Shown here: positions 56,521 to 64,000 of the stretch, piece after piece
How the letters are laid out: every line of letters starts with the position of its first letter
Position numbering within the stretch: the stretch's first letter is position 1
Origin: an uncultured Gemmatimonadales bacterium
GTDB lineage: Bacteria > Gemmatimonadota > Gemmatimonadetes > Longimicrobiales > Gaopeijiaceae
DNA: 64,000 nucleotides
Direction of reading: 5' to 3'
Assembly (NCBI GenBank): GCA_963809895.1
Contig: CAWELD010000003.1
Span: forward strand, 128,001-192,000
Notes under the pieces: model-generated
What the model saw: the letters and a program-made list of their open reading frames with translations, nothing else
The model's database searches: none
What the model was told of the DNA's origin: nothing
Position numbers and translations under genes: made by a program

Positions 56521-57264
56521 CTATGGCAGCAGGGTCAGATCCGAGCGCAGCAGCCACAGCTCACTGTGGGCCCGCACGTCCGACGAGCCCGCGAGGGCCC
56601 GGCGAATCGCTCGCGCCGGATCCGTCGCCGGGTCGTCGAGGCTGGCCAGGCTCGGTCTCCACACCATCACCGTCACCTGGCCGTCGGCCGTGCCCACGGA
56701 GCTGGTGTACACCGTGTAGGGCAGGAGGCCGGCGCCCGGGGCGTCTCGTTTCACCGTGGCAAGCGCTGCTTTGAAGTCGGCCTCGGCCTCGGGGGCCACG
56801 GTGTAGGTGACCACCTGCGCCAAGGGCGGTGGTACCTCCCGCGCCTCCAGCGGTCCTGCGGTGCTCAGGTCGAGCCGGGCCCGCACTGCCCAGCGTCCGG
56901 TGGCTCGCGCATGGTCCGCGAACGAGCGGGCGGCGTGGGCTGCATCCGCGGCCGGGTCCACGCGGCGGTCCAACGCCTCGAACGAAATGCCGAAGGTGCC
57001 GTCCACGAACTCGCCCAGTCTCTGCCCGGCGATGACGTCCCACCCGTACCAGGGCAGCGAATCCCGTCTCGCTCGGTGCCATTGGAGGTGGGCACGATAC
57101 CCCTCGTCGAAGCTCGGCCGTTCACCCTGGTGGGGCCGGTAGGAGAAGAACATGCCGCCAACACCCTGGCCGTGGATCGGGGCGGGCGTGAGCACTACCA
57201 GGACGGCCAGGCAGAGCCCGGCGGGGGTGAGGCCGGTCCGACGCTCTGGCAATGATCGTCGCAT
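56521..57264 (-). CDS. Exported hypothetical protein (two NIPSNAP/dimeric alpha-beta-barrel-like repeats)
   Basis: Signal peptide; two similar halves each ending R.DL[ST]; divergent from LysR. Confidence 0.75.
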   Translation of the reverse strand: MRRSLPERRTGLTPAGLCLAVLVVLTPAPIHGQGVGGMFFSYRPHQGERPSFDEGYRAHLQWHRARRDSLPWYGWDVIAGQRLGEFVDGTFGISFEALDRRVDPAADAAHAARSFADHARATGRWAVRARLDLSTAGPLEAREVPPPLAQVVTYTVAPEAEADFKAALATVKRDAPGAGLLPYTVYTSSVGTADGQVTVMVWRPSLASLDDPATDPARAIRRALAGSSDVRAHSELWLLRSDLTLLP

Positions 57265-57336
57265 GGAGGGATTCTCGGGTTTGGAGGGCAGGCTTGCGGA
57301 GGTGTCAGGACCGCCAGATAATGGGCGTATATAGAA

Positions 57337-57366
57337 ATAAGTTGGCCAATTTATCAATTCCATAAA
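57337..57366. promoter_or_regulatory. LysR-type binding site(s)
   Basis: TTTAT-N7-ATAAA (57350-57366, contains T-N11-A) and ATAAgTTGGCCAAtTTAT in an AT-rich divergent intergenic region. Confidence 0.7.
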
Positions 57367-58292
57367 TGGATCCTATGGAAACCGCGGGCCCGGAACTCCC
57401 CTACCTCGAAGTCTTCCGGGCCGTGTGCCACGAGGGAGGATTCACCGCCGCGGCCCGGCGTCTGGGATGTAGCCAGCCGGCGGTGTCGTACCAGATCCGC
57501 AAGCTGGAGGAGATCGTGGGCCTCGAGCTGGTGGAACGGGACGGTCGCCGCCTGGTGCTGACACCGGCCGGACGGCGATTCCGGGTGCTGGCCGACGACG
57601 TCTTCGCCGAGCTCGCCAGGGTGCGGCGTGAGTGCGTTGCGGGACGACGCCTGGAACCGCTCCGCTTGGGCTCGGTGAGCGGGTTCGGGCGGTATGTGGT
57701 GATGCCGGCACTCCATCGACTTCGAGCCGAGGAGGAGGGCGATGGGCCCGAGGTCCGCCTGCAGTACGAGGCCGCCGACGTCCTCCTCGAGCGTCTGGAA
57801 GAAGGCGCGTACGAAGGCGCATTCGTCTACAAGCGAAGGATCACCAGCGGCGTGAGCTTCCGGCGCGTGTACGACGAGGAACTGGTCCTCGTCGCCAGTC
57901 GGGAACGAGCGGTGGAGGTCCGAGCGGGCGGTCTCGACCGCGTGGCGACGTTCGAGGCGGCGCCCTTCGTCACCTACGAGGAGTGCGACTACGTGTTCGG
58001 CCGCTGGTTCGACGAGACCTTCGGCGTCCAGCCGTCGCGGATCCTGAGCCGCTCCCACTTCACCGAGTTGGAGGAAGTCCTGGACTTCGTGTCCGCGGGC
58101 GCCGGGCTGTCGGTGGTGCCGAGGGATTCTGCCGAGGCCTGGTGTGCGCGGGACGAGGTCGAGATCCTCTACGCGGGTTCCGGGAATCCCTGCCTCAACC
58201 GGGTCTTTCTCGCCACGCGGCCGGGCTCCGAGGTGCGGCCGCTGCTCCGCCGTCTCGTGGAGTTGCTCGGAAGCGGACCGCGTCCAGGCTGA
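57366..58292 (+). CDS. LysR-family transcriptional regulator
   Basis: FTAAARRLGCSQPAVSYQIRKLE, LTPAG. Confidence 0.95.
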   Translation: MDPMETAGPELPYLEVFRAVCHEGGFTAAARRLGCSQPAVSYQIRKLEEIVGLELVERDGRRLVLTPAGRRFRVLADDVFAELARVRRECVAGRRLEPLRLGSVSGFGRYVVMPALHRLRAEEEGDGPEVRLQYEAADVLLERLEEGAYEGAFVYKRRITSGVSFRRVYDEELVLVASRERAVEVRAGGLDRVATFEAAPFVTYEECDYVFGRWFDETFGVQPSRILSRSHFTELEEVLDFVSAGAGLSVVPRDSAEAWCARDEVEILYAGSGNPCLNRVFLATRPGSEVRPLLRRLVELLGSGPRPG

Positions 58293-58370
58293 ACCCGGCT
58301 GGGCCGTCACCCAACCCGATCCGCGCCTCTCCAGGGGACGCGCCTTTCCACTGCTTCCAGGAACGCCATC

Positions 58371-59798
58371 GTGCCCGCAGCCCCGATCCTGCCTCGTCGC
58401 GAAGAGCTGACTCCCGTGCTGGAACGGGTGATGGCGGACGCGCTCCGGTATCTTTCGGACCTCGACGAGCGGCCCGTCCTCGACCCCGCCGCCGGCGAGG
58501 TCATGCGGACTTTCCGTCGTCCGTTGCCCGCAGACGGCGTGGGCGCGGCCGAGGCGCTGCGGGAGCTCCTCGAGAGAGGCCTCGACGCCACCGCCGCCAC
58601 CTCCGGGCCGCGCTTCTTCCACTGGGTCACGGGGGGCACGACTCCCGCGGCGTTGGGCGCGGATTGGGTCACCGGCGTTCTGGATCAGCAGGGCTATGCC
58701 TGGTACGGGTCACCCCTGGCCGTGGAGCTGGAGGTGTTGTCGCTGGATTGGCTCAAGGAGCTGTTCGGCCTCCCCGCGGCCTGGACGGGCATCACCACGA
58801 CCGGTGCCAGCATGGCGAACTTCGTGGGCCTGGGAGCCGCTCGGCAGTGGTGGGGGCACCGACAAGGGAGTGACGTGGCGCAGGATGGACTCACCGGCCT
58901 GCCTGCCATGCCCGTGTTCTGTGGTGGCTACATCCACGCCAGTGCGGTGAAGGTGCTGGCGCTGCTGGGCACCGGCCGGTCCGGGGTGCGGCGACTCGTG
59001 CGCGACGACGTCGGGAGGATCGATCTCGCCGCCGTCGAGGCCGAGTTGAAGGCCCTGGACGGCTCGCCGGCCATCCTCGTCGCGGGGGCCGGCGAGGTCA
59101 ACGCCGGCGAGTTCGATCCCATCGACGCCATGGCCGACCTCGCCGAGGAGTACGGCGCGTGGTTGCACGTGGACGGCGCCTTCGGACTCTTCGCCGCCCT
59201 CTCGCCGCGTACCGCCCACCTCGTGAAGGGAGTCGAGCGAGCGCACTCCGTCACGGTCGACGGCCACAAGTGGTTGAACGTGCCCTACGATTGCGGGTTC
59301 GCCTTCGTGCACCACCGGCGCTGGATGGCCGAGACGTTCGCCTACGACGCCGAGTACCTCTTCGATCCCTCCGACCCGCATCCCGTCATGGGAGGGCTGG
59401 GGCCCGAAAGCTCACGCAGGGCTCGGTCGCTGGCGGTGTGGGCGACCCTGCGAGCCTACGGGCGCGAAGGCTACCGGAGCATGGTGGAGGATCACCTGGA
59501 TCTGGCCCGGGACCTCGCGGAGCTGGTCGATGCGGCGCCGGAGCTCGAGCGCCTGGCCGACGTCCCCCTCAACATCGTGTGCTTCCGCTTCAACCCCGGC
59601 ACCGTGCCCGACGACGAGCTGGATGCGCTGAACCGCGCGCTGGGGCAGCGGATCCTCGACGATGGTCGGGTCTTCGCCGGAACCACCCGCTACGCCGGGC
59701 GGGTGGCGCTGCGCCCCTGCATCGTGAATTGGCGGACGCGAGCGGACGACGTGGCCTTCTTCGTCGAGGTCGTGCGGGAGCTCGCCGCCGGGCTGTAA
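58371..59798 (+). CDS. Group II PLP-dependent (aromatic amino acid-type) decarboxylase
   Basis: PRFFHWV, WLHVDGAFG, DGHKWLNVPYDCG, SRRAR. Confidence 0.93.
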   Translation: MPAAPILPRREELTPVLERVMADALRYLSDLDERPVLDPAAGEVMRTFRRPLPADGVGAAEALRELLERGLDATAATSGPRFFHWVTGGTTPAALGADWVTGVLDQQGYAWYGSPLAVELEVLSLDWLKELFGLPAAWTGITTTGASMANFVGLGAARQWWGHRQGSDVAQDGLTGLPAMPVFCGGYIHASAVKVLALLGTGRSGVRRLVRDDVGRIDLAAVEAELKALDGSPAILVAGAGEVNAGEFDPIDAMADLAEEYGAWLHVDGAFGLFAALSPRTAHLVKGVERAHSVTVDGHKWLNVPYDCGFAFVHHRRWMAETFAYDAEYLFDPSDPHPVMGGLGPESSRRARSLAVWATLRAYGREGYRSMVEDHLDLARDLAELVDAAPELERLADVPLNIVCFRFNPGTVPDDELDALNRALGQRILDDGRVFAGTTRYAGRVALRPCIVNWRTRADDVAFFVEVVRELAAGL

Positions 59799-59819: not shown

Positions 59820-59863
59820 TGCGACGCCTCTGAGATGTTCGTGAGACGTCGTGCGCGAATCCT
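59820..59863 (+). promoter_or_regulatory. SARP-type heptamer direct repeats plus putative -10
   Basis: TGCGACG (59820), TGAGATG (59831), TGAGACG (59842) at 11-bp period; AATCCT 9 nt downstream. Confidence 0.7.
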
Positions 59864-59901
59864 GTCAGGCCCTGGAACCCTCACCCTGACCGGAGGCAGC
59901 C

Positions 59902-61230
59902 ATGCCCGACGACCACGACATCGCGACGCTTCAGGACCTGGAGTGCTGCCCGAAGCTCGCCAAGGTGCCCACCTGCGACGTCCTCGACTTCCGCTACCGG
60001 CTTCCGTGGCGGCGGCAGGAGGGCCGTGTGGACGTGATCCTCCACTTCCGCCTGGAGCGATGCTCGGGACCCCTGGCGCTGGGGGACCTGGCGTACAGCA
60101 CCACGCTGTTCCCGGGCGAGCGCGTGCGCCTGTTCACCAGCGACCGGCACACGCGTTGGACCTACGATTCCGAGACGGAGCTGGCGTACCGCCACGAGAC
60201 CACCTCGGAGGAATCCTTCTACACCTTCGGCATGGCCCGCGCCATGAGCGACCTCTCCATCAGCGAGTCGGGGAGCTCGTCGAGCAGCCACGACGAGGAC
60301 TGGGCCTCGGGTGGCGGAGGCGCGTCGTTCAGCTTCCTCGGCATCATCAACATCGGTGGCGGAGGTGGAGGCGGAAGCTACGACGCCGATTCCAGCAGCC
60401 AGTTCGCCCGCAACCTGTCGCGCCACGCCGAGTCCTCGTCGAGCTACGTGGCCGCGGGCGTCCGCGCTCAGAGCACCACGTCGGTGGGCGAGGTTCAGCA
60501 ACGCAGCCACGCGGAAGGCGAATCGGAGTCCCACCTGGAGTCCGCGTCGCGGGTCTTCAGCAATCCCAACCGCTGCCACGCCGTCACCTACCTGTTCTAC
60601 AAGCTCATCAAGCAGCAGACCATCCGCTTCAGACTGGTGGCCATCGAGCGCGTGTTGGCCGATCCCTCCGCTCCCACGGCGCCGGATCGCACGCTCAAGC
60701 CCGACGTCGCAGGTGCCGTGGCGGTCCGTCCCCAGGCCGTGCTCGCCACCGCCAAGGATCGCGTGGAGGTGGAGCGGGTGGCCCGGGTGGCCGCGGCCGA
60801 GCGTCGCCAGGCGAGCCTGGGCCTGACCAGCGATGCCGTCGCGTTCGCCGGGGCGTCGCTGCGAGCCAACGCCTTTGCCGGTGAGCCGGCATCGGCGGCC
60901 GCGCGGGCCAAGGCCCTCGAGGCGGTGGACAAGGAGCTCGCCAAGGCCGGCCTGATCGACCGCGAAACCGGCGAGCCCACCGAGAAGATCATCGCCGACC
61001 TGTCGTGGGAGCGGGAGGAATGGCTCCCCACGCCGGGGCTCCTGGTAAAGGGGTGTCTGGACGCGTGCGGCACGTGCGAGCCGGCGCTGAAGAAGCAGAT
61101 CGAGCAGGAGCTGGAGCATCAGCGGCTCGAGAACGAGCTGCTCAAGCGCCAGATCGAGCTGCTGGACCAGGCCCAGGAGTATCGTTGCTGCCCCTCCGAC
61201 GAGGAGGAGGACACCGACGGCGATCACTGA
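59902..61230 (+). CDS. Hypothetical Cys-rich protein with long Ser/Gly-rich hairpin-like core (candidate beta-pore former)
   Basis: GGAGG SD and strongly coding composition; function not recognised. Confidence 0.85.
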   Translation: MPDDHDIATLQDLECCPKLAKVPTCDVLDFRYRLPWRRQEGRVDVILHFRLERCSGPLALGDLAYSTTLFPGERVRLFTSDRHTRWTYDSETELAYRHETTSEESFYTFGMARAMSDLSISESGSSSSSHDEDWASGGGGASFSFLGIINIGGGGGGGSYDADSSSQFARNLSRHAESSSSYVAAGVRAQSTTSVGEVQQRSHAEGESESHLESASRVFSNPNRCHAVTYLFYKLIKQQTIRFRLVAIERVLADPSAPTAPDRTLKPDVAGAVAVRPQAVLATAKDRVEVERVARVAAAERRQASLGLTSDAVAFAGASLRANAFAGEPASAAARAKALEAVDKELAKAGLIDRETGEPTEKIIADLSWEREEWLPTPGLLVKGCLDACGTCEPALKKQIEQELEHQRLENELLKRQIELLDQAQEYRCCPSDEEEDTDGDH

Positions 61231-61244
61231 TCCTCCGTCTCGAA

Positions 61245-61314
61245 CCGGGCGGTCTTCGAGGGCCGCCCGTGCACCGAGCCCCCGGCAGCCGCGTCCGGCC
61301 GCCGGGGGCTCGGT
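61245..61314. terminator. Paired hairpins between convergent genes
   Basis: CGGGCGG...CCGCCCG and ACCGAGCCCCCGGC...GCCGGGGGCTCGGT stems. Confidence 0.65.
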
Positions 61315-61340
61315 CTTCCCGCCCGGGCTGGTGCGCCGGG

Positions 61341-63560
61341 TCAGGCACCACCTCCGCCACCGCCGCGCCCGCGCCCCGGCGCTCCGGGACAGGGTCGGGT
61401 CAGCATGAACGCTGCCACGTCCGAGGCGTCCAATCCCGACAGGCGGTTGTAGCCGTCCACGGTCAACGCGCGCACGTGCAGGCGCTCGGAGAAGGCCCCC
61501 TGGTCACACCCGCCCAGCAACGTCAGGGGGTCGAGGCCCGCTTTGGTGAAGGTGCAGGTCGAGCTCCGCGTGAAGCCGTTCGCGGCGGCGGTCGTGACCG
61601 GCCCGTCCGCGTTGCCCGACGGAACCGGTGTCGACACTCCCCGCTCGGTGCGGAAGCGGAAGTGCGCCAGGCCTCCGGGACGGCCCGCGTCGAAGGCCAG
61701 GGCCACCGTGGGTGCCGGCCCGGTGAGCGTGACCACACCGCACGCCGGATCCACACCGATCCCGGTGCCCGAAACCGGCTGGACCTCGCCGCCGCAGCGG
61801 GCGTTGTCCACGTGCAGGACCATGCGGAACGCCACCGTCTTTCCGGCCTCGGTGATCCGGTGATAGGGATCGGCCACCGCGGTCAGCACCGGGTCGGTGC
61901 CGAAGGGGGCCTCGTTGGTGGCGTACCGCAACGTGATCCCCTCGTCCTCCCACGCCACGCGGGCTCCGGAATCGTCGAAGAGCTCGAGTTTGAGCTCGTA
62001 CTTCCCGGCCCTGGGATCGGCCAGCCCACACGAGGGGCGGGGTCCGTCGGGCCACGGCGGCGCCGAGGTCTCCAGGTGCGCGCTGGCCAGATCCTCGCGC
62101 TCGTCGGCCACCAGCCACTCGATGCCCCCGGTGGGGGGCTCCTTGGGACGGATCTGGAAGCGCCCGGCGTTGGCGCCCGCCGGCTCCGGGCCCATGACCG
62201 CCACCGGTGCCGTGCCGTCGGGCATGGTGTAGTGACGGATGACCTGCCGGCTCAGGGGCGTCCAGTCGGATTCGGTGCTCCCCAGGGGGCGCACGGACCA
62301 CAGGTAATGGTGGATCCCGTCGGCCGCCAACGCGGTGCGCCCGAACCAGACCCGCGGCTCCAGCTTGCCGCCGAAGGCGAAGCGCGCACTGCCCGATGCG
62401 GCGTAGGCGAATCCCTCTTCCGCCTTACCTTCGTCGGCTCCCGCGGCGCTCGTCAGGATCTCCCCGACGCTCACCGTGCGGCCCACCGACAGCACCCAGA
62501 CCTGCTTGCCGTCGAGATCCGGCTCGTCGCTGCAGCCGGGCACCCGGCTGTCGGAGACCCTCAGCACCACCTCCGAGCCGCATTCGTAGTCCCAGTGCGT
62601 CCAGCAGGGAAGCGGAGGCGCGTACACGGTCTCCCATCCGGCGCCGAAATCGTACTCGACACGGAAGTAGAGGTCCGGCTTGTCGCCGTCGCAGTCGTAG
62701 GGGAGGAGGAGCTGGAAGCGCCCGTTGGCGTCGGTGGTGACCACCGCCACCTCGTCGCACCGGTAGCGCCACCAACTGGGCCAGAAGCACAGATAGGGCA
62801 GCAGGAGGCGCCAGTTGTCCACCAGCGCGCGGCGAACGGCCGGCGTCGCGGAGGTGCGCAACACCGTCTGGAACTCCATGGGCAGCGCCGTGGACGCCAT
62901 CTGCGAGCGGCGCTCGAGGTCGAAACGGAAGAGCGGTCGATCGAAGGGCGCGGGATCCGGACCAGGCCCTGGAGGCAGGGGCGGCTCGGGAGGAAGCGGG
63001 CCGATGGGGGCGGGATCCGGCCGCGGTTCCGGCGGGAAGGGAAGGGGGATGGGCCGCAGCAGATCGTCGCGCAGCTTGAGGATGTCGCGGTCGGGAAGCT
63101 CCAGGATCCAGCGCGGGACTCGATCCACCTCGCAGATGCGGACCCGCGCTCCGCACACCCCGCGCTGGTCCGACGCGCGGATCACGCGGCCCTGCACGAG
63201 ACACAGGCAGAACGGCCAACCGTCGAGGATGCTCCCCGGAATCTCCACCTTCGTCGTGAGATCGCCCGCGATGCCTCCGCGGAGAACGGGCTCGAAGGCT
63301 CCCAGCGCCTGCAGTCGCGACGGTGCGGGCGCATCGTCCACGTCGGTGAGCCCCTTCGAGGCGGGGACCAGAAACACCCGGCTTCTGGCGACGTCGCCGG
63401 GCGACATCGACAGCGTCAGCTTTCCCGACTTGACGTCCCCGCGCTCGACGAGGTTCCCCTGTTTGTCGTAGACGAAGGCATGCAGGGACTCGTCGAAGTG
63501 GGGTCTGGCCTTGGTGGTGACCTCCAGGGTCACGTTGTCGCCGGTCTTTCGTCTGGCCAT
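61341..63560 (-). CDS. Hypothetical 739-aa Cys/Pro-rich multi-beta-sandwich protein (transthyretin/carboxypeptidase-regulatory-like module)
   Basis: GGAGG SD; VQGRV...GARVRICEVD, TTDANGRF, KPDLYFRV; Pro-rich insert; no signal peptide. Confidence 0.85.
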   Translation of the reverse strand: MARRKTGDNVTLEVTTKARPHFDESLHAFVYDKQGNLVERGDVKSGKLTLSMSPGDVARSRVFLVPASKGLTDVDDAPAPSRLQALGAFEPVLRGGIAGDLTTKVEIPGSILDGWPFCLCLVQGRVIRASDQRGVCGARVRICEVDRVPRWILELPDRDILKLRDDLLRPIPLPFPPEPRPDPAPIGPLPPEPPLPPGPGPDPAPFDRPLFRFDLERRSQMASTALPMEFQTVLRTSATPAVRRALVDNWRLLLPYLCFWPSWWRYRCDEVAVVTTDANGRFQLLLPYDCDGDKPDLYFRVEYDFGAGWETVYAPPLPCWTHWDYECGSEVVLRVSDSRVPGCSDEPDLDGKQVWVLSVGRTVSVGEILTSAAGADEGKAEEGFAYAASGSARFAFGGKLEPRVWFGRTALAADGIHHYLWSVRPLGSTESDWTPLSRQVIRHYTMPDGTAPVAVMGPEPAGANAGRFQIRPKEPPTGGIEWLVADEREDLASAHLETSAPPWPDGPRPSCGLADPRAGKYELKLELFDDSGARVAWEDEGITLRYATNEAPFGTDPVLTAVADPYHRITEAGKTVAFRMVLHVDNARCGGEVQPVSGTGIGVDPACGVVTLTGPAPTVALAFDAGRPGGLAHFRFRTERGVSTPVPSGNADGPVTTAAANGFTRSSTCTFTKAGLDPLTLLGGCDQGAFSERLHVRALTVDGYNRLSGLDASDVAAFMLTRPCPGAPGRGRGGGGGGA

Positions 63561-63621
63561 GCGCGCCTCCGCTGTGCAGCCGCCTGCCGTAGGCGGTCGG
63601 AAAAGAAAACTCGGGGTGCGG

Positions 63622-63676
63622 AGAATGTCCGACGGGCGTCCCAGGGCCATCTCGTTCCCGTCACGCAGACGTCCCG
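63622..63676 (-). promoter_or_regulatory. SARP-type heptamer direct repeats plus putative -10
   Basis: Minus strand CGGGACG, CGTGACG, CGAGATG, TGGGACG at exact 11-bp period; CATTCT 9 nt downstream. Confidence 0.72.
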
Positions 63677-63879
63677 ACCGCAGGTTGAAGATCTCTTGTG
63701 TTTTCGTCGACGACCGCCTAGACATTGGGGGCCGGGACGGCTCCCCACCGTCTCCGGCGCGTCCGGAGGCGCATGGACCGGACGCCGGCCGGTTCGCTCC
63801 CCGGGTTCGAGGTCGGGCGAGGTCGCGTAGGAGAGGGGCCCTCTCCAACCGGTCGCCACAGGGCAGCACGGGGTCGCAC

Positions 63880-64000
63880 ATGACCTCCCTCGCCATTCAC
63901 CTGTTCGGGGGCGTCCGGGTCCTGCTCGACGGTGAGCCGCTCGGACCGTTTCCCACTCGTTGGTCCGCAGGGCTCCTGGGCTACCTGGCCCTTCACCGCC
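63880..64000 (+). CDS. SARP/AfsR/BTAD-type transcriptional activator (N-terminal fragment, truncated by window end)
   Basis: MTSLAIHLFGGVRVLLDGEPLGPFPTRWSAGLLGYLALHR matches the typical L-x-I-x-L-F-G...LL-x-YL-x-L start; absent from the ORF track. Confidence 0.75.
   Translation, partial: MTSLAIHLFGGVRVLLDGEPLGPFPTRWSAGLLGYLALHR

Follow-up and report, generated by a model that had tools for sequence, protein, structure and literature searches.

A predicted SARP regulon around a candidate β pore-forming protein in an uncultured Gemmatimonadales bacterium

Small SARPs of the ActII-ORF4, RedD and DnrI type are regulators of ~300 residues built only of a DNA-binding domain and a BTAD, and they act at promoters in which three or four heptamers follow one another at an 11-bp period just ahead of a weak −10 element; we use the class as it stands in PMC10972967. 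PMC10936776 places SARP repeats 11 or 22 bp apart, with 8 bp between the last repeat and a suboptimal −10 element (CACTGT at afsS), and assigns one SARP protomer to each repeat. Among pore-forming proteins, the aerolysin superfamily (the enterotoxin CPE and epsilon toxin of C. perfringens, parasporin-2, Tpp/Bin, monalysin and aerolysin) has a five-stranded core in the order β1, β2, insertion loop, β3, β4, variable loop, β5, and its borders cannot be drawn on sequence, according to PMC3110756.

We analysed a window of 64,000 nucleotides (G000:C3:128001–192000) from the genome of an uncultured Gemmatimonadales bacterium (5.33 Mb, 69% GC, 95% complete). Two convergent genes, here called A (59902–61230, + strand, 442 aa) and B (61341–63560, − strand, 739 aa), lie beside a SARP gene that begins at 63880 on the + strand. 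Neither protein matched a family in Pfam, NCBIfam, PHROGs or PADLOC. We found no published description of the two families, which are unnamed and may be mentioned in supplementary tables or subscription papers. We read the locus, at best, as a kit that the SARP induces and that centres on a probable β pore-former activated by protease, and not as an obligate binary toxin.

A small SARP and its predicted regulon

Both open reading frames put forward in the preliminary description of this DNA are genuine: each is preceded by a GGAGG ribosome site, the codon bias is host-like with a GC3 of 0.90 (A) and 0.88 (B), and homologs number at least 1,937 for A and 121 for B. A longer 851-aa frame for B, reaching 63896, was rejected since it crosses the B promoter and the homologs begin at the 63560 ATG. 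The gap between A and B contains two GC-rich hairpins (61246–61314; z −3.7, 0 of 200 shuffles as good), which likely form a shared terminator region; no U-tract was found at these hairpins, and a scan for consensus promoters and terminators returned no match. The proteins had been called Cys-rich, which holds in a modest sense (~2.2% Cys), with many of the cysteines invariant and a median of 10 per A homolog and 16 per B homolog. Their description as lacking signal peptides agrees with a simple hydropathy test, in which a hydrophobic N-terminal stretch was absent from 116/117 A and 111/112 B homologs. Directly upstream of A are a LysR regulator and a PLP-dependent decarboxylase (56521–59798), and a similar decarboxylase lies close to A in loci L004 and L008.

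The regulator gene occupies 63880–64000 (+) within the window and, with sequence fetched past 64000, ends at the window equivalent of 64755 (G000:C3:192755), giving 291 residues followed by a stop. Its BTAD matches PF03704 with 99.9 bits (cut-off 22.1, E 2e-28), the N-terminal winged helix matches Trans_reg_C PF00486 with 19.5 bits, below the cut-off of 26.2 (E 1e-3), and a continuous alignment with AfsR and EmbR covers residues 5–248 (E 1.5e-14). By these matches the divergent ORF is a SARP, as had been proposed, and belongs to the small class. It consists of winged helix and BTAD only, with no NB-ARC/TPR extension, so that the NB-ARC domain anticipated earlier is absent. It differs from the SARPs named above in its host, a Gemmatimonadota, in its predicted targets, which are protein genes and not a biosynthetic cluster, and in its heptamer, YGNGAYG.

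Three YGNGAYG heptamers at an 11-bp period precede A at 59820–59848 on the + strand (TGCGACG at 59820, TGAGATG at 59831 and TGAGACG at 59842), and four precede B at 63637–63676 on the − strand (CGGGACG, CGTGACG, CGAGATG and TGGGACG, starting at 63676, 63665, 63654 and 63643). These arrays are the predicted SARP operators of the two genes. In each promoter a weak −10-like hexamer, positioned from the sequence, lies 9 nt past the last heptamer: AATCCT for A (59858–59863, +) and CATTCT for B (63622–63627, −). The exact period, the positions and the hexamer spacing first recorded for both promoters all check out, and this geometry agrees with that given for SARPs in PMC10972967 and PMC10936776. 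Six actinobacterial promoter hexamers carry TA at +10/+11 and no T at +15.

Across the 5.33-Mb genome, three or more YGNGAYG heptamers at 11 bp occur in three places only, namely the A promoter, the B promoter and a site 2.8 Mb away. From 19,804 single sites, 0.07 triples would be expected, and four overlapping triples were observed at the three places. The whole genome holds no triple at periods 9, 10 or 12–15, and none of the reversed pattern. The third place is an independent test because the pattern was derived from the other two. A weight matrix built from the ten heptamers also ranks the same three places top at period 11; its scoring is circular, and it shows only that further sites are absent.

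The third array (G000:C3:2965042, +) lies ~70 nt ahead of a three-gene operon (G000:C3:2965042–2968270, or L089:9042–12270), which makes the regulon larger than the preliminary description saw. The operon encodes a 460-aa repeat protein, a 239-aa reprolysin-like zinc protease (PF13688, at cut-off) and a 342-aa HEAT protein. Its promoter is a near copy of the A promoter, with a hexamer at +10, CAGTTG, that lacks the final T. The C-terminal domain of the 460-aa protein is kept in 7/400 other genomes of the phylum, and third-operon genes lie near none of the surveyed A or B loci. The label "tail-fibre-like", considered for the 460-aa protein, was dropped, as it had no family match and only weak matches to designed β-propellers. 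A LuxR/TPR regulator follows the operon.

The coupling of regulator and repeats extends beyond this genome. Scored as two NGNGAYR copies spaced 11 bp apart in 79 usable A loci (L029, which has no upstream DNA, was dropped), repeats precede A at 8/9 loci with a SARP in the flank versus 3/70 without; these counts are not independent, because the nine SARP loci fall mainly in two clades, Gemmatimonadota and Actinomycetota. In all, the fetched flanks of 71/80 A loci hold no SARP. SARP-less loci with a GC content of at least 64% have repeats in 3/24 cases, against a background of 11/520 windows. The arrays at SARP loci are less regular, since 5/9 also show a 12-bp pair. Locus L003 has four repeat copies, and at L105 a close SARP and a B homolog point away from each other, with 11-bp repeats in tandem. 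That the adjacent SARP co-regulates the genes, as first suggested, is well supported: A, B and the third operon very probably form the regulon of this SARP. The case for binding and co-induction is strong, and the SARP is taken as the heptamer-binding protein from adjacency and conservation, because long frames of the same genome hold four other BTAD matches.

Other genomes of the phylum suggest that the SARP clade keeps the motif and swaps its cargo. SARP matches at E<=1e-30 occur in 4/400 of them, and the flanks in G098 and G329 were read. In G329 a SARP relative is followed by four repeats and, exactly 9 nt on, by TAGGAT, ahead of Cys-rich and DUF1360 genes, and the flanks of the G098 relative hold no heptamer triple. 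Relaxed-motif matches in G098, G329, G390, G159, G393 and G706 were set aside as near control levels; they fall mostly in or before unrelated genes, and no multi-site regulon emerged there. Downstream of the G098 relative, a subtilase of 1,629 residues matches Tlde1 weakly (L195:13477–18363). This exchange of cargo bears on the idea that the genes are unrelated passengers sharing a promoter by duplication, co-induced with no common function. Such a history would account for the near-copy promoters of A and the third operon and for the many A and B loci, the majority, that stand alone, but SARP, repeats, A and a B-like gene recur together in two phyla, and we regard it as very improbable.

By eye, the spacer between the SARP and B (63700–63880, −) resembles the spacer between the SARP and A in L078. 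From this likeness, B has perhaps taken A's place beside the regulator by rearrangement.

Protein A and the pore hypothesis

The A family comprises at least 1,937 homologous sequence clusters among 7,996 scored candidates, with 785 representatives at 50% identity. Species-representative genomes contain 546 confirmed stretches, a count that can exceed the number of genes because two patterns were used, and the closest named loci include Gemmatimonadota. Distribution is patchy: the 401 genomes of the phylum yielded three full-length matches and three distant ones. No match was found in plasmids or phages, and none was confirmed in viral contigs. The giant-virus protein A0A5K0U6Q4 of Yasminevirus matches A with E 2e-17 at 28% identity. 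It is the only clear structural relative of A in the viral library, and P0355 (634 aa) and P0292 are divergent forms similar to it.

Known pore-formers are not detected by sequence. The Pfam pore families PF01117/PF03318 match 0/43 members of the A family, hhalign of the A profile against one aerolysin-like protein gave a probability of 0.06, and PDB sequence searches with A1, A2 and A3 returned chance matches only.

The predicted model of A (pLDDT 75) has a long strand at residues 41–69, a strand at 74–81, a poorly modelled insert to ~212, a strand at 215–220, a long strand at 226–253, helices, a strand at 369–390 and a coiled coil at 394–427. Its elements, in the order long β1, β2, insert, β3, long β4, variable helical loop and β5, match the core order in PMC3110756, an agreement of strand order only, with superposition Z of 2.1–4.3. 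The insert (~100–215) has a Ser/Thr fraction of 0.23–0.36 in most windows, against 0.01–0.16 past residue 220. Ser/Thr-rich tracts flank the hairpin in the aerolysin superfamily. Across 43 diverse members, residues 134–160 of A form a predicted amphipathic hairpin whose arms alternate in hydropathy, whose tip is hydrophobic and which is bounded by aromatics at 134 and 160; the period-2 moment is ~1.0 at 135–145 and 151–161 and similar at 171–181 and 195–217. Confidence in the insert is low (pLDDT <50 at 120–146), and its parts 103–116 and 162–190 are predicted and patterned as amphipathic helix.

A shares with aerolysins the predicted order of its strands, an insert that is rich in Ser/Thr and holds an amphipathic hairpin, and a variable loop before the fifth strand, and its weak fold matches point consistently to them. 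It differs in having no detectable sequence similarity, an insert of ~115 residues that is partly helical, a C-terminal coiled coil with Cys-Cys-Pro, and neither a fused receptor domain nor a signal peptide. Aerolysins are not known to have a conserved coiled coil at the C-terminus. A conserved CxxxCxxC lies at residues 385–392, where the fifth strand gives way to the coiled coil, and Cys15, Cys16, Cys25 and Cys54 are conserved along with the Cys-Cys-Pro tail; these cysteines may bind metal or form disulfides.

Three tools point weakly to an aerolysin-type fold, none of them significantly. The named Atlas clusters nearest A are Aerolysin and ETX_MTX2, and the ten best named matches belong to one clan; the scores of 0.77–0.79 are leads only. 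Foldseek gave a best E of 0.22, with several pore-formers among parvovirus capsids. VIA on chains preselected by Foldseek returned 27 rows, consisting of 15 aerolysin-type proteins, three MACPF proteins and nine single helices. The aerolysin-type rows align over A residues ~20–390 with Z 2.1–4.3 and rmsd 5–19, among them CPE (Z 4.3, rmsd 6.4, 116 aligned) and epsilon toxin (Z 3.5, rmsd 6.2, 165 aligned). A wide VIA search put T-fold enzymes first (Z 5.8, rmsd 3.6, 99 aligned), with no pore-former among the 50 rows listed; we treated its T-fold and single-helix matches as background.

On balance, we think it likely that A forms pores. We describe it as probably working like an aerolysin-type pore, and not as a member of that superfamily, because borders cannot be defined on sequence. 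The pore suggested in the preliminary description stays plausible for the 442-aa protein; the defence role proposed with it found no family match in PADLOC.

Proteases recur around A. Six long relatives (932–2,456 aa) contain the A core, and 5/6 match the fifth-strand motif. The core is fused to an S8 protease (subtilase) in L100:9711–12608 and L101:2226–5021, to a C70 protease in P0394 and to Ig/LRR repeats in P0395. Bacterial gasdermins are signal-less pore proteins with protease partners. These resemblances, with the patchy spread of A, would also suit a suicide pore that a protease opens inside the cell, in defence against phages or to bring about programmed lysis. We find that role improbable: A, B and the SARP have no PADLOC match, control lies with a transcriptional SARP switch and not a phage sensor, and the Ig-like partner B, with adhesin-like domains and many invariant cysteines, suits a role outside the cell. 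The fold rows listed by Foldseek and VIA include no gasdermin.

Injection-system genes adjoin A in a few genomes. A tube gene lies near A in 4/80 loci. The Rhodanobacter loci L051, L053 and L072 run from a sigma-54 activator through A and an optional B and calpain-like gene to injection-system genes; sheath, tube and Pvc16 were confirmed for L051 and the calpain-like gene in L072. There A resembles the cargo of extracellular contractile injection systems, a signal-less gene directly upstream of sheath, tube and Pvc16. Such cargo differs from A in general, in that tube genes occur at so few A loci and none was found in the host genome. A first search of that genome for injection-system genes, whose positive control gave no signal, found none, nor did tblastn, for which sheath, tube and Pvc16 of L051 were the queries, and a host injection system was rejected on these empty searches.

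A could instead be a structural oligomer (ring, tube or needle), either a T-fold-like tunnel or an accessory component of a particle, in which case B and the third-operon repeat protein would supply fibre or coat. The best wide VIA matches are ring-forming T-fold proteins, the coiled coil is conserved, B resembles pilin and S-layer sandwiches, and the tube genes and giant-virus match would fit. We consider this unlikely, as the T-fold Z lies within background, 76/80 loci are without injection-system genes, no host tube gene was found and the amphipathic hairpin is left unexplained.

Protein B and its association with A

B has 121 homologous clusters among 7,995 candidates, and its nearest Atlas cluster has 3,614 members. 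The model (pLDDT 88) is nearly all β and predicts tandem β-sandwiches. Residues 117–339 form a transthyretin/CnaB-like sandwich with helical and Pro-rich inserts, for which VIA gave a best match to a transthyretin-like domain (Z 10.4, rmsd 2.2, 82 aligned), pilin CnaB domains coming next. Approximately residues 590–724 form an Ig-like domain, and the VIA comparison barely covered the middle of B. No enzyme family was found in B. Foldseek matches to complement C3/alpha-2-macroglobulin were discarded as strings of sandwiches with TM ~0.1, not homology. B thus resembles CnaB pilins and adhesins and transthyretin-like proteins in domain 117–339 (Z 8–10), its tandem sandwiches and the C-terminal Ig-like domain. 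Unlike the CnaB pilin and adhesin proteins, it has no signal peptide or wall anchor and carries the helical and Pro-rich insert and invariant cysteines.

The partnership of A with B-like genes is recurrent and optional. A B-like gene flanks A in 27/80 loci (one marginal), the B family proper in 11/80. Where 2.5 kb is available on both sides, 22/58 A loci have a B-like neighbour and 36/58 have none. All these neighbours are co-directional with A, unlike the convergent pair in the window. A B-like gene is present at 8/9 SARP loci of A versus 19/71 other A loci. The B-like genes fall into four subfamilies, three of them linked to B by hhalign probabilities of 98, 94 and 86%; the three other profiles were built from those same A neighbours, and hhalign was run without a negative control. 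Seen from B, the picture differs: A lies near none of the 80 best B loci, nor any of the 28 with 1.5 kb on both sides, with a control of 81/81.

The preliminary description held that A and B act together and looked to homolog neighbourhoods for co-occurrence with the regulator and repeats. The combination does recur in two phyla, no A was found at the B-centred loci, and an obligate co-acting pair is not supported by these counts. Adjacency in co-directional order, the four subfamilies and the enrichment at SARP loci would speak for an obligate two-component toxin or complex, as would, indirectly, six cases in which the top A and B homologs seemingly come from the same sources. The absence of A from B loci, the many well-flanked A loci with no B-like gene and the lack of a B-family match in 3/5 A-bearing whole genomes, where diverged subfamilies can be missed, make it improbable. 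Long A relatives were also considered as A–B fusions, and none of the six matched a B profile. In one protein, P0302, an A homolog appears by eye to carry the N-terminal domain of one B-like subfamily (cf. L003, L078), which hints that A and B-like proteins are functionally linked. That B is an accessory to A we propose tentatively.

Proposed mechanism and wider family

The reading we prefer, in which the SARP switches on A, B and the third operon, A is a diverged aerolysin-like β pore-former and B an optional accessory, has in our estimate about an even chance of being right as a whole. SARP protomers would occupy neighbouring repeats across the −35 region and, in the manner of AfsR, make up for weak promoters, a step for which support is strong. 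A and B, with no signal-peptide-like N-terminus, would be released when the cell lyses or, in certain hosts, in a contractile injection particle. A may be made as a soluble precursor that is clipped by a protease induced along with it, here perhaps the third-operon zinc protease, and elsewhere by fused or adjacent S8, C70 or C2 proteases. Once clipped, A would oligomerise, its insert (~100–215) zipping into a long β-barrel with the tip (~134–160) crossing the membrane. In the weakest step, B and its relatives might serve as exchangeable adhesin-like modules that help to target or display A.

A more far-reaching version, which we hold only as a speculation with the odds against it, sees the A family as long-stem β pores or protein translocons spread across phyla and a giant virus. 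A dedicated SARP clade would run them together with interchangeable partners, namely Ig-like targeting proteins, proteases and small membrane proteins. The whole would be a modular weapon regulon free of signal peptides, with the target set by B-like proteins and the pore armed, or traversed, by proteases.

If A forms pores, this would be the first function for its family, which spans many phyla and has a match in a giant virus; the β-pore superfamily would reach beyond sequence detection, and the long insert could be of nanopore interest. The regulatory part is firm enough for use: it supplies the predicted operator of a SARP and, away from the antibiotic clusters of Streptomyces, a regulon of three sites.

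In 15/80 loci A has a small membrane gene of the DUF1360 type close by. Upstream of A, a tiny ORF, reading M-x-C-C-G and then Lys/Arg, stands just before the repeats in L025, L031, L058, L059, L079, L080 and L082, and in several of these loci it directly follows a DUF1360-type gene.
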